Shown piece by piece: positions 23,967-25,972 of a stretch of DNA of 64,000 nt (the first letter of the stretch is position 1; every line of letters begins with the position of its first letter). The notes under the pieces are model-generated. The model was given only the letters and a program-made list of their open reading frames with translations, had not been told where the DNA came from and made no database searches. The position numbers and the translations under genes were made by a program. The stretch is from Escherichia phage vB_EcoM_YN3: the sequence record PV763136.1. One strand, written 5' to 3'.

Positions 23967-24521
23967 TTACTCCCCGCTGTCAATAGCAAAACTCATTGCA
24001 ATACGGTATGCCTCTTCTAATGGTAAGAGTCTCCCCCACACATCCCAACCGACATCAAGCTGCCTGCCAAACAACTGTTGTGTGGTTCCGTGAGCATGAC
24101 CGAACAGTTGGACTGATCCGTGATGCTTTCTGTTCCACTTTGCAAATTGGTAATGGCTCATACAGATCAAATTCTTGTTGTGGCGAAGCTCGTAATAATC
24201 TACAACCTCATGATAGAACTCTTTCATAATTCTGACAGTCGTCCTTGTGTCATGGTTGCCACGAACAAGAATAATATGTCCGTTCAACATATTTAGAATA
24301 TCTGGAAGTAAGTTGTTGATATTCTTATCATTAGTGCACGCAATATCCCCCAAGTGGAACACAGTGTCTGCAGGTGACACAACAGAGTTCCACTCGGCGA
24401 TGATTCCCGCATTCATACTGTCAAGATTGTGATCATACTGAGATCTGTGTTTTTGACATGAATCAAACTCCATGACCCGCTGGTGGAGAAAGTGTGTGTC
24501 GCTTGTTACAAAGTATTTCAT
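23967..24521 (-). CDS. calcineurin-type metallophosphoesterase
   Basis: SDTHF, GDI, GNHD, GHAH metal-ligand motifs; start moved to Met 35 (GAGGAA RBS) so it abuts the kinase stop. Confidence 0.7.
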   Translation of the reverse strand: MKYFVTSDTHFLHQRVMEFDSCQKHRSQYDHNLDSMNAGIIAEWNSVVSPADTVFHLGDIACTNDKNINNLLPDILNMLNGHIILVRGNHDTRTTVRIMKEFYHEVVDYYELRHNKNLICMSHYQFAKWNRKHHGSVQLFGHAHGTTQQLFGRQLDVGWDVWGRLLPLEEAYRIAMSFAIDSGE

Positions 24522-24528
24522 ACATTCC

Positions 24529-24936
24529 TCATTTAAGTTTAATGCAGTTTTTAAGTTGGCGTTCCATACGATCCACAACCTCGTCTGAAGCATGAATGCT
24601 TTTATTACCGTGGCGGTTTTCAACCACGATTACGGTATAACTATACCCATAACTGATTGCCATGTCAATATATTTTTGCACATATTTTTCTTTTGTAAAC
24701 GTATTACTTACCACGATACGGTCGTATCCCATACGCATCATATCTTCTACGTTATCTTTGCACCATTTTGCTGCAAGTGTGACTTTACTTGCATCCCAGT
24801 TGTAATTTCCATCATCGTCGTACCAGAACATGTCGTTCTCAAAATGTGGATACAGACCCTCTAAAGATAGCGCATTTGCCAGTGTTGATTTGCCAGACCC
24901 TGGTAGACCACGCACGATATATAGCATTTTAGACAT
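24529..24936 (-). CDS. P-loop polynucleotide kinase-like protein
   Basis: MLYIVRGLPGSGKSTLA Walker A near N-terminus; start moved to Met 20 with GGAGG RBS. Confidence 0.6.
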   Translation of the reverse strand: MSKMLYIVRGLPGSGKSTLANALSLEGLYPHFENDMFWYDDDGNYNWDASKVTLAAKWCKDNVEDMMRMGYDRIVVSNTFTKEKYVQKYIDMAISYGYSYTVIVVENRHGNKSIHASDEVVDRMERQLKNCIKLK

Positions 24937-24964
24937 AGTGACCCTCCGTTTTAATTTCAACGAT

Positions 24965-24993
24965 AGTATACCTAACTGTTTTGTTAATTTCAA
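24965..24993 (-). promoter_or_regulatory. sigma70-type promoter for the kinase/phosphoesterase operon
   Basis: minus strand TTGAAA - 17 nt - TATACT, about 25 nt upstream of the RBS. Confidence 0.5.
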
Positions 24994-25036
24994 GTGTTGA
25001 CACTAGGTTATTTGTGTGGCAGGATAGACTGACAAA

Positions 25037-25972
25037 ATGACAAATGAGGAACGTATGATGAAGTATTTTAATGCAGACGACCTAGTTGACAAAGGTCTTG
25101 TAACCAGCAGATATTACCCAGATCTCGGGTTAAAGATCTATAAATATGCTAGAAAAGTATTTTACAACAATTTATGGCATTTGTCCCCTCGTTTACTGGA
25201 GTGCCGAGGCATTGTTGTCGGGAATGAAGGAAATGTTGTGGCATGGCCCTTCACAAAAGTGTTTAACTTGGGAGAAAACTCCACCAACCTACCGGACAGT
25301 AAACTTGTGACTGCGGTAGAGAAAAAGAACGGATTCCTCGGTGTGGTATCATCTCATAAAGGTGAACTATTGTTCTCAACAACCGGATCTCTTGATTCTC
25401 CATATTGTAACCTCGCAAAGGAAACCATCCAGGAGCAATGTGGTAATTTAGATCTTATCAAGAAGGTTATGGGCAATGAAAACATGACATTCATGTTTGA
25501 AATTTGTCACCCTTCAGATCCGCATATTGTTCAAGAAGATCATGGCGCATATTTGATAGGTTGCAGATATAATGATTCTGGAATAATGCTACCAGAAGCA
25601 GCTTTAGATGGGATTGCCAAATACCTTGGTGCAAAACGTCCTCACACTGTGCGTGAAATTCCGTTCAGCTATGCAAAAGAATTAGCTGCAGAAACAAGAG
25701 GTGAAGGGTATATGATCCGTAAGCCTTACTACCCTTACGACCTGCAGCTGAAGATCAAGTCTCCATACTATCTGGCACGGAAGGCCGTAATGAGGGGTAA
25801 AGCTTGGAAGATTTGGGATGATGATATCTTTAAACGTGTTGATGAAGAGTTTTACGGCATGGTAAACTTCATTCGTAGCAATTACACAGAAGATGTGTGG
25901 AACTGCCTCCTGGAGCAGGAACGCCGTGAGATACTTGACCACTATTTCCACAACGAGGACTATATGCAATGA
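25037..25972 (+). CDS. ATP-dependent RNA ligase-like nucleotidyltransferase
   Basis: ligase motifs EKKNG (I), EGYMIRK (IV), LKIK (V); alternative start at Met 7 (25055) has a better RBS. Confidence 0.55.
   Translation: MTNEERMMKYFNADDLVDKGLVTSRYYPDLGLKIYKYARKVFYNNLWHLSPRLLECRGIVVGNEGNVVAWPFTKVFNLGENSTNLPDSKLVTAVEKKNGFLGVVSSHKGELLFSTTGSLDSPYCNLAKETIQEQCGNLDLIKKVMGNENMTFMFEICHPSDPHIVQEDHGAYLIGCRYNDSGIMLPEAALDGIAKYLGAKRPHTVREIPFSYAKELAAETRGEGYMIRKPYYPYDLQLKIKSPYYLARKAVMRGKAWKIWDDDIFKRVDEEFYGMVNFIRSNYTEDVWNCLLEQERREILDHYFHNEDYMQ

Follow-up and report, generated by a model that had tools for sequence, protein, structure and literature searches.

The window analyzed here, a stretch of 64,000 nucleotides from Escherichia phage vB_EcoM_YN3 (sequence record PV763136.1), carries neighboring genes for a metallophosphoesterase, a P-loop kinase and an RNA ligase, whose products probably act together in the healing and sealing of broken RNA. 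The phage is a Vequintavirus of the rV5 group; positions 23500-27200 match Escherichia phage BP9 at 100% identity and over 100 further Vequintavirus (rV5-like) genomes at 96-97%. Only minus-strand genes lie to the left of about 24940 (kinase, phosphoesterase, a helix-turn-helix (HTH) protein, small open reading frames and a tRNA cluster, then spanin, terminase and structural genes), and only plus-strand genes lie to its right (RNA ligase, cREC, Sir2, MazG-like protein, DNA ligase, endolysin, and replication and recombination genes). Since the sign of the GC skew flips at the same place, at about 24940, the trio is located at the genome's main strand switch. The features of the locus are the following.

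23967..24521, minus strand: metallophosphoesterase, 184 amino acids (Pfam Metallophos; phrog_547; metal-binding motifs)
24529..24936, minus strand: predicted P-loop polynucleotide 5'-OH kinase, stand-alone, 135 amino acids (Pfam AAA_33; phrog_2071, phrog_505; fold)
24937..25057, no strand: strand-switch spacer with candidate back-to-back sigma-70-like promoters (consensus scan; conserved positions in the relative L005)
25037..25972, plus strand: predicted Rnl1-type ATP-dependent RNA ligase, open reading frame of 311 amino acids (Pfam RNA_lig_T4_1; phrog_562; hhalign; fold)
25969..26319, plus strand: cREC (cyclic-phosphate processing receiver-like) protein, 116 amino acids (Pfam PF20274 cREC_REC; phrog_1479)
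26328..27089, plus strand: class-III-like sirtuin without zinc-binding cysteines, 253 amino acids (Pfam SIR2; phrog_2162)
27103..27816, plus strand: MazG-like nucleotide pyrophosphohydrolase, 237 amino acids, a weak assignment (phrog_671)

An earlier sequence-only reading had proposed a split Pnkp-like RNA repair trio around a divergent promoter, and its interpretation was supported by every computational test applied. The three open reading frames were found where it had placed them, at 23967-24521 (-), 24529-24936 (-) and 25037-25972 (+); the kinase and phosphoesterase genes do abut, the phosphoesterase start lying 7 nucleotides past the kinase stop codon, and the gap given as about 100 bp is a spacer of exactly 100 bp (24937-25036). 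In the profile searches it had called for, all three proteins scored above the Pfam gathering scores. The DNA ligase that it had kept apart from the RNA ligase is indeed a separate gene (28444-29727, RKLDGLR, matching DNA_ligase_A_M and OB_2). As to the extent of the module, the trio stood, but the rest of the rightward unit, namely cREC, the zinc-less Sir2 and the MazG-like gene, had been missed.

The candidate back-to-back promoters in the spacer are supported on two grounds, their consensus and their conserved position in L005, a relative of 89% identity. A promoter scan gave a leftward sigma-70-like promoter, TTGAAA (24993-24988)-17-TATACT (24970-24965), with 10 of 12 consensus matches, and the sequence itself shows a rightward one, TTGACA (24997-25002)-17-CAGGAT (25020-25025), so that the two -35 boxes are three bases apart. 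Both occupy the same positions in L005 despite diverged sequence, as TTGACA-17-TAATAT leftward and TTGACT-17-CATAGT rightward. A search of the spacer for a structured RNA or an operator gave no Rfam match and no inverted repeat. A 10-nucleotide direct repeat, TTAATTTCAA, was observed at 24951-24960 and 24984-24993, the two copies being 33 nucleotides apart and bracketing the leftward promoter: one overlaps the -35 box of that promoter, and the other is situated immediately beyond the -10 box. In the relative JES2013 a single base of the first copy is changed, and the repeat could be a regulator site or could be due to chance.

The three enzymes at the strand switch

The ligase carries the motifs KKNG (K96), EGYMIRK and LKIK, and matches Pfam RNA_lig_T4_1 (PF09511) with 55.5 bits against a cut-off of 28.3 and phrog_562 with an E value of 3.9e-66. 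The phrog_562 label, 'tail fibre attachment', was inherited from T4 gp63, and nothing in this locus bears on it. Because the ATG at 25037 is absent from L005 and the ligase homologues begin MK(F/Y)N, a start at 25055 or 25058, preceded by GAGG, is favored; judged from sequence, one of these is probably the true start, which would give a protein of 304-305 amino acids. Relatives are numerous, with 1682 in a word-indexed collection and, in an exhaustive representative search, 8372 at E<=1e-3 and 480 at E<=1e-30. A search of the PDB with the single sequence gave nothing useful and a family profile was needed, for which T4 Rnl1 was the sole match among all PDB sequences (E 1.5e-12). The hhalign comparison with T4 Rnl1 (97.7% probability, E 1.8e-12) covered T4 residues 32-248, and in it the positions invariant across the ligase family alignment (R57, K74, F76, K96-x-N98-G99, E155, E223-G224 and K239-x-K241) align with T4 R54, K75, F77, K99, D101, G102, E159, E227, G228, K240 and K242, respectively. 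Both parts of the Rnl1 catalytic domain are present, that is, the N-terminal sub-domain with the equivalents of Arg54, Lys75 and Phe77, and motifs I, III, IV and V. The AlphaFold model of the ligase (predicted local distance difference test, pLDDT, 91.8) matched the folds of fungal Trl1-LIG, T4 Rnl1 and archaeal Rnl3 at E values of 1e-12 to 1e-9, whereas DNA ligases were matched merely at about 5e-5 to 1e-2. The protein therefore does not cluster with DNA ligases or capping enzymes, since RNA ligases alone appear in the profile matches and among the top fold matches, as the sequence-only reading had expected. Its last 65 or so amino acids form 3-4 helices in the model, with a conserved DEEF, W288 and RR296-297. 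From the conserved Rnl1 catalytic residues, sealing of 3'-OH and 5'-PO4 RNA ends is predicted.

The kinase starts at an ATG at 24936 (MSKMLY...), with a GGAGG ribosome-binding site 6-7 nucleotides upstream, and its protein begins MSKMLYIVRGLPGSGKST. At 135 amino acids it is a minimal P-loop kinase of a very large family, matching Pfam AAA_33 with 40.6 bits against a cut-off of 27, as well as phrog_2071 and phrog_505, 'polynucleotide kinase'. Invariant in the family are G13xGK16(S)T18, D35, N78-T79 in SNT(F)T, and E106-N107-R108-H109-G110, so that the elements of a polynucleotide-kinase site, the Walker A Lys and Ser-Thr, a general-base Asp some 20 residues further on and a phosphate-binding lid Arg (R108), are in place; D35 aligns with Asp35 of T4 Pnk. 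The single sequence again found nothing useful in the PDB and a family profile was needed, which gave extended matches to RazKIN, Pnkp1 of the Pnkp1-Rnl-Hen1 repair complex, T4 Pnk, PSTK and CthPnk. RazKIN is the stand-alone tRNA-splicing RNA 5'-OH kinase of Mucorales and phosphorylates both RNA and DNA ends. Matches to polynucleotide kinases spanned about 100 residues, but those to adenylate and other small-molecule kinases only some 30 residues of the P-loop. Consistently, the structural model (pLDDT 85.4) was superposed on CthPnk, T4 Pnk and Pnkp1 with template modeling (TM) scores of 0.71-0.76, against 0.45-0.6 for gluconate, shikimate, adenylate and UMP/CMP kinases. By both profile and fold the protein is thus of the polynucleotide-kinase type and does not group with deoxynucleoside monophosphate (dNMP) or adenylate kinases.

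The metallophosphoesterase, with its motifs SDTHF, GDI, GNHD and GHAH, matches Pfam Metallophos at 28.5 bits against a cut-off of 21.5 and phrog_547, 'phosphoesterase', at an E value of 1.3e-51. D8xH10, G58D59, G88N89H90D91, H123 and G141H142xH144 are fully or almost fully conserved across 28 family members, which is the motif set of a calcineurin-like dinuclear metallophosphoesterase (DxH, GD, GNH(D/E), H, GHxH) with its dinuclear site intact. The enzyme is accordingly of the metallo type and not of the HAD type found in T4, as had been read from the motifs. Its closest solved relative is the Aquifex structural-genomics protein aq_1665 (1xm7, E 1e-27), followed by GpdQ, YfcE, Rv0805, MJ0936 and the nuclease MPE. 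Among PDB entries its profile matched neither lambda phosphatase, nor Clostridium thermocellum Pnkp (CthPnkp), nor any protein phosphatase of the PPP type; it groups with phosphodiesterases and not with protein phosphatases.

Linkage, fusions and neighboring genes

Conservation of the trio was followed in 80 loci on IMG/VR phage contigs that carry a ligase relative (33-89% identity to the window ligase), in which six-frame open reading frames were searched iteratively with the window proteins; the loci were collapsed to 38 ligase lineages at 60% identity. A kinase was found in 74 loci and a phosphoesterase in 61, against 13 for the MazG-like protein, 12 for cREC and 11 for Sir2. A kinase no more than 1.5 kb from the ligase, or fused to it, is present in 29 of the 38 lineages, and the phosphoesterase is within 1.5 kb in 29 of the 38 as well. 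cREC occurs in four lineages and Sir2 in three, and they are separable, cREC being found without Sir2 in L007/L008 and Sir2 without cREC in the L010 group. The trio is hence the conserved core of the module, and the rare and separable Sir2 and cREC, set against the constant kinase and phosphoesterase, indicate that the sirtuin branch is optional and not the core mechanism. Kinase and phosphoesterase almost always adjoin the ligase in the same direction, in the varying order phosphoesterase-ligase-kinase or kinase-ligase-phosphoesterase. The divergent layout was found only in Vequintavirus (the window and L005), other lineages with the trio being co-directional.

Gene fusions point in the same direction. 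The kinase subfamily of the window is fused to the ligase N-terminus in 13 loci, within L043-L058 (L052 confirmed by Pfam), and in L079 the ligase carries a different AAA_33 kinase at its C-terminus (Pfam-confirmed), so that fusions are known in both orders. Among the best 150 representatives found for the ligase, 25 are 700-812 amino acids long, and all five of the long proteins scanned had AAA_33, Metallophos and RNA_lig_T4_1 in the order of Pnkp. One of these proteins, P0386 (767 amino acids, AAA_33 + Metallophos + RNA_lig_T4_1), is encoded among bacterial-type genes (RuvA, EAL, Wzy_C), and its ligase domain shares 37% identity with the window ligase along the full length, including the C-terminal helices (E 7e-54). 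Its Metallophos domain, with GDVHG, GDLIDRG and GNHE, motifs which we take to be typical of lambda-phosphatase-like enzymes, was related to the window phosphoesterase by hhalign with a probability of only 4%. Orthology of the phage kinase and phosphoesterase to the domains of the bacterial three-domain proteins was considered and rejected, since the similarity is merely at the level of the P-loop and the GNH motif. 'Split Pnkp-like' thus holds as a description of the architecture, in that bacterial kinase-Metallophos-ligase proteins contain a ligase of the same family, but not as a statement of orthology for the kinase and phosphoesterase. That the ligase family was joined repeatedly to kinases and metallophosphoesterases of differing branches is strong evidence for a shared heal-and-seal function.

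Other enzymes were observed in some of these loci. Immediately upstream of its Rnl1-like ligase, contig L068 (145-822) encodes an Rnl2/DRB0094-type RNA ligase (Pfam RNA_ligase, E 3e-35; EKMDGEN), and no kinase or phosphoesterase was detected in its examined flank. An HD-domain protein lies directly upstream of the metallophosphoesterase in L021 (6758-7207; HD_4 below cut-off) and L022 (6934-7428; no Pfam match), and a CX5R(S/T) protein resembling low-molecular-weight phosphotyrosine phosphatases and ArsC, with no Pfam match, follows kinase-ligase-phosphoesterase in L066 (9364-9894). The HD and CX5R(S/T) proteins are candidates for other phosphoesterases beside the trio.

Downstream of the ligase in the window, the cREC start overlaps the ligase stop by 4 nucleotides, and Sir2 and the MazG-like gene follow after spacers of 8 and 13 nucleotides; these three genes are lineage-specific additions to the conserved trio. 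The sirtuin matches Pfam SIR2 (E 1.9e-27) and phrog_2162 and is nearest to E. coli CobB (1s5p) and SIRT5. Aligned with CobB, it has HVHG opposite HMHG and an identical FYNARR, while no cysteine is found across the cysteine-containing segment of CobB; we take HVHG to hold the catalytic His, FYNARR to be the Tyr-x-x-Arg anion-binding pair of class III, and the CobB cysteines to form the zinc module. The MazG-like protein matches phrog_671, 'nucleotide pyrophosphohydrolase' (E 5.8e-22), and has no match in Pfam, NCBIfam or the PDB. The cREC protein scores 54.7 bits against a cut-off of 27 with Pfam PF20274 cREC_REC and matches phrog_1479. In the literature cREC is a predicted opener of cyclic phosphates, the sirtuin was proposed to act like KptA/Tpt1 on 2'-phosphates, and a MazG-superfamily member is listed in the same neighborhood (Iyer et al. 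2022, PMC9503650).

The leftward unit contains tRNA genes, which in the window are some 2.9-3.8 kb away from the phosphoesterase gene, and among the 80 loci tRNA genes are within 8 kb of the ligase in 33. In the window, seven tRNA-like genes at 20132-21071 (-) lie downstream of the kinase and phosphoesterase, comprising Pro-TGG, Met-CAT, Thr-TGT, Ser-TGA (91 nucleotides), an 85-nucleotide tRNA (20782-20866, detected by Rfam only), Arg-TCT and one odd gene. The tRNA content varies among Vequintaviruses; in JES2013 the annotation lists Pro, Met, Thr and Arg alone, and the gap is shorter by about 400 nucleotides. The odd gene, at 20377-20475 (-) and 97-99 nucleotides long, combines normal acceptor, D and T arms with a long variable arm and an anticodon stem-loop of irregular form. 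Its ARAGORN call is undetermined or Gln with a 5-nucleotide intron, and its Rfam score is just 31 bits. The loop can be read as TTTTTAA, giving the anticodon UUU (Lys), as the homologue is annotated in MaxTheCat; tRNA-Lys(UUU) is the classic target of anticodon nucleases, and the gene could be a nuclease-resistant replacement tRNA.

On the minus strand, the phosphoesterase gene is followed directly by 23569-23919, which encodes a 116-amino-acid HTH protein, for which HTH_36 and DUF6945 were below cut-off, phrog_12838 reads 'replication initiation protein' and the BASEL label is 'putative transcriptional regulator'. The preceding 22951-23568, some 620 bp between a 192-amino-acid open reading frame and the HTH gene, holds no open reading frame of convincing length; relatives annotate two tiny coding sequences there, and the sole Rfam match was at chance level (rli43, 25 bits against a cut-off of 100). 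Farther to the right, 30317-31015 (+) holds a homing endonuclease frame of 232 amino acids (HNH_3 + AP2 domain, GTG start), overlapping the 3' end of the endolysin gene. Since this stretch is complete in only about 10 of 111 related phages, for example FV3 and rV5, the window is mosaic relative to BP9 at that point.

The proposed repair pathway and its alternatives

These observations make it quite likely that the three genes constitute a heal-and-seal RNA pathway of separate polypeptides, with back-to-back promoters heading two divergent Vequintavirus units. At the 3' end, the metallophosphoesterase would open the cyclic phosphate and remove the phosphate to leave a 3'-OH, acting as both 2',3'-cyclic phosphodiesterase and 3'-phosphatase. 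This role is suggested by gene context and by analogy with the metallophosphoesterase domain of CthPnkp and with lambda phosphatase, both of which hydrolyze 2',3'-cyclic phosphates and provide a precedent for a dinuclear metallophosphoesterase in RNA repair. At the 5' end, the fold and conserved residues suggest that the kinase would phosphorylate the 5'-OH of the RNA through its P-loop, with Asp35 as the general base and with Arg108. The ligase, in view of the complete conservation of the Rnl1 catalytic residues, would be adenylylated on Lys96, activate the 5'-PO4 and seal the break. By analogy with the action of T4 Rnl1 on tRNA, and given the nearby tRNA genes, tRNA is the most likely target of repair. 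The module is real and of a known kind, phage or bacterial RNA heal-and-seal, and its neighborhood has been known in silico since 2022, when the one 'prototyped by Escherichia phage V5 and Proteus phage Mydo' was predicted as an RNA-repair system (Iyer, Burroughs, Anantharaman, Aravind 2022, PMC9503650). In BASEL genomes, MaxTheCat among them, the genes already bear the labels 'polynucleotide kinase', 'putative phosphoesterase' and 'RNA ligase'.

Several points weigh against this pathway. Lys119 of T4 Rnl1 stands opposite an invariant Thr116 in the ligase family. No alignment of the ligase was obtained past T4 Rnl1 residue 248, so the T4-type C-terminal helical domain (about 255-374) was not found, and the NCBIfam equivalog model of T4 RnlA gave 38.1 bits against a cut-off of 242; because of both results, the protein is classed from sequence as an Rnl1-type catalytic domain and not as an RnlA equivalog. 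In T4 Rnl1 the C-domain confers specificity for the tRNA anticodon loop, and appended domains define RNA ligase clades (PMC6379707). With the T4-type domain of tRNA preference absent, other RNAs may therefore be substrates. The phosphoesterase belongs to the aq_1665 branch, away from the lambda-phosphatase/CthPnkp branch, so that its substrate has to be read from its gene neighborhood, and neither it nor the kinase is orthologous to the corresponding domain of the bacterial fusions. Polynucleotide kinases often accept DNA ends too. Finally, no experimental paper on RNA repair in Vequintavirus or on the anticodon-nuclease sensitivity of these phages was found in the literature.

In one alternative, the kinase and phosphoesterase would heal DNA ends, namely the 5'-OH and 3'-phosphate left where host nucleases nick or break DNA, and would thereby serve the nearby ATP-dependent DNA ligase, the role of the RNA ligase being a separate one. 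A DNA ligase gene lies near the trio in the examined flanks of 41 of the 80 loci, often about 0.9-2 kb from the phosphoesterase, which weighs against the RNA pathway and for DNA-end healing. Also in favor of the latter are the general nucleic-acid metabolism encoded in the region and the use of both RNA and DNA ends by the related stand-alone fungal kinase. The phosphoesterase is also weakly similar to the ligase-associated DNA-damage nuclease PdeM/MPE, but its score with the PdeM model (18.6 bits against a cut-off of 150) is far too low. Kinase and Metallophos domains are fused with RNA ligase and never with DNA ligase, which argues against DNA-end healing, and in nearly all loci the two genes are nearer to the RNA ligase than to the DNA ligase; this alternative is regarded as improbable. 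Very improbable indeed is that the three genes are unrelated neighbors brought together by the clustering of early genes, with the phosphoesterase degrading small nucleotides or cyclic-nucleotide immune signals and the kinase being a nucleotide kinase. The closest characterized relatives of the phosphoesterase (GpdQ, Rv0805, YfcE, MJ0936) do act on small phosphodiesters, and Iyer et al., who labeled the kinase 'nucleotide kinase', gave other phage calcineurin-like enzymes counter-signaling roles; the kinase also has weak P-loop matches to dNMP and thymidylate kinases. These matches, however, cover about 30 P-loop residues as compared with about 100 for polynucleotide kinases, the fusions involve the same kinase subfamily, and adjacency has been kept in 29 of 38 lineages despite a shuffled gene order.

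A route dependent on nicotinamide adenine dinucleotide (NAD), similar to that of yeast and plants, would extend the heal-and-seal pathway without replacing it, and is conceivable though doubtful for this locus. According to this model of Iyer et al. 2022, published for exactly this neighborhood (PMC9503650), a 3'-OH,2'-PO4 end is left by a cyclic phosphodiesterase, either cREC or the metallophosphoesterase, and is sealed by the KxNG ligase; the sirtuin then strips the 2'-phosphate from the junction through ADP-ribosyl transfer in the manner of Tpt1/KptA, and the ADP-ribose by-product is disposed of by the MazG-like enzyme. The tight rightward unit of ligase, cREC, Sir2 and MazG-like genes, with its 4-nucleotide overlap and 8- and 13-nucleotide spacers, is in favor of it, and so are motif I of the ligase, KxNG as in Trl1-LIG, and the place of Trl1-LIG among the top structural matches. 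The sirtuin has kept HVHG and FYNARR relative to CobB and lost the cysteines, and the loss of the zinc module would fit a non-protein substrate. Yet KxNG is invariant throughout the family, while Sir2 and cREC occur in 3 and 4 of the 38 lineages, so that the ligase works without them in most phages; the use of KxNG as the mark of a Sir2-tied, 2'-phosphate-dependent ligase is unsupported for the same reason, being invariant in lineages that lack Sir2. Moreover, Sir2 and cREC are found apart (cREC only in L007/L008, Sir2 only in the L010 group), and a metallophosphoesterase is present in all Sir2-bearing lineages, which implies that Sir2 adds to the metallophosphoesterase rather than replaces it. 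The Arg residues of the Trl1 C-domain proposed for 2'-PO4 binding could not be mapped on the ligase, and no sirtuin is known to act on an RNA 2'-phosphate. It is thus unlikely, in its full form, that the Vequintavirus trio is coupled to a second, NAD-dependent branch in which an RNA-acting zinc-less sirtuin replaces Tpt1/KptA, cREC opens cyclic phosphates and the MazG-like enzyme clears the by-product. If true, a sirtuin activity directed at RNA and a 'eukaryote-style' route of 2'-phosphate repair in a phage would both be firsts, although as a prediction the idea is already in print (PMC9503650).

The heal-and-seal trio matters in the wider context of phage defense. It occurs in at least 38 ligase lineages of phage contigs with a different phosphatase from that of T4 and in the form of separate proteins, and would represent a second, widespread solution to RNA breakage. 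Many anti-phage systems cut tRNA or mRNA, among them PrrC, RloC, PARIS, retron effectors, Cas13 and toxin-antitoxin RNases, and T4 Pnkp/Rnl1 is, to our knowledge, the only phage repair answer with experimental backing. The module is present in easily handled E. coli phages, such as the BASEL Vequintavirus MaxTheCat (bas57). Demonstration of RNA repair would define the host nucleases defeated and give a function to metallophosphoesterases of the aq_1665 type, and the module offers a direct way to ask whether the neighboring sirtuin and cREC act on RNA ends.

Comparison with known systems

One counterpart is T4 Pnkp (PseT) with Rnl1 (RnlA), which counters PrrC by repairing the tRNA anticodon loop and is likewise a phage-encoded heal-and-seal system of three activities. 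T4 Rnl1 shares the adenylyltransferase domain and catalytic residues with the window ligase, and T4 Pnk shares its fold with the window kinase (TM 0.71-0.75). In T4, however, one protein unites the kinase with a phosphatase of the HAD type (DxDxT), whereas the window encodes two proteins, with a dinuclear metallophosphoesterase in the place of the phosphatase. Motif I is KxDG in T4 Rnl1 but KxNG in the window ligase, and the C-terminal 65 or so amino acids of the latter do not align with the 120-amino-acid C-domain that gives T4 Rnl1 its tRNA specificity.

Bacterial Pnkp, for example that of Clostridium thermocellum, which works with Hen1, has the same three activities from the same enzyme superfamilies, but as one kinase-phosphatase-ligase polypeptide in place of three genes on two strands, and its kinase and phosphoesterase belong to other branches of their superfamilies than the window proteins. 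The ligase domain of CthPnkp (Rnl4) was not matched by the window ligase profile and is absent from the top fold matches; in the bacterial AAA_33-Metallophos-RNA_lig_T4_1 proteins of 700-812 amino acids, by contrast, the ligase domain is homologous to that of the window. No annotated methyltransferase adjoins the module that could correspond to Hen1, for which the whole window was not scanned.

Likeness to fungal tRNA splicing is seen in the ligase and the kinase. Trl1 (LIG-KIN-CPD) contributes, with Trl1-LIG, one of the best structural matches of the window ligase, and KxNG is common to both. Ligase and kinase are separate polypeptides in the split tRNA splicing of Mucorales, as in the window, and the Mucorales enzyme RazKIN is the best PDB sequence match of the window kinase profile. 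The cyclic phosphodiesterase of Trl1 is a 2H enzyme while that of the window would be a metallophosphoesterase, and Trl1 needs a 2'-PO4 that is later removed by Tpt1, whereas the window has no Tpt1/KptA gene but only a sirtuin of putative role.

The closest likeness is to the type 2 neighborhood of Iyer et al. (PMC9503650), described from the same phage group with a sirtuin, a T4-like tRNA ligase, cREC, a kinase, a MazG-superfamily protein and a calcineurin-like phosphoesterase. All six components lie within 23967-27816 of the window, the MazG protein being assigned by PHROG only. The two descriptions differ in their center: Iyer et al. placed the sirtuin in the middle and regarded the phosphoesterase as 'occasional', whereas in the ligase-centered view taken here kinase and phosphoesterase are near-universal, and sirtuin and cREC are rare.

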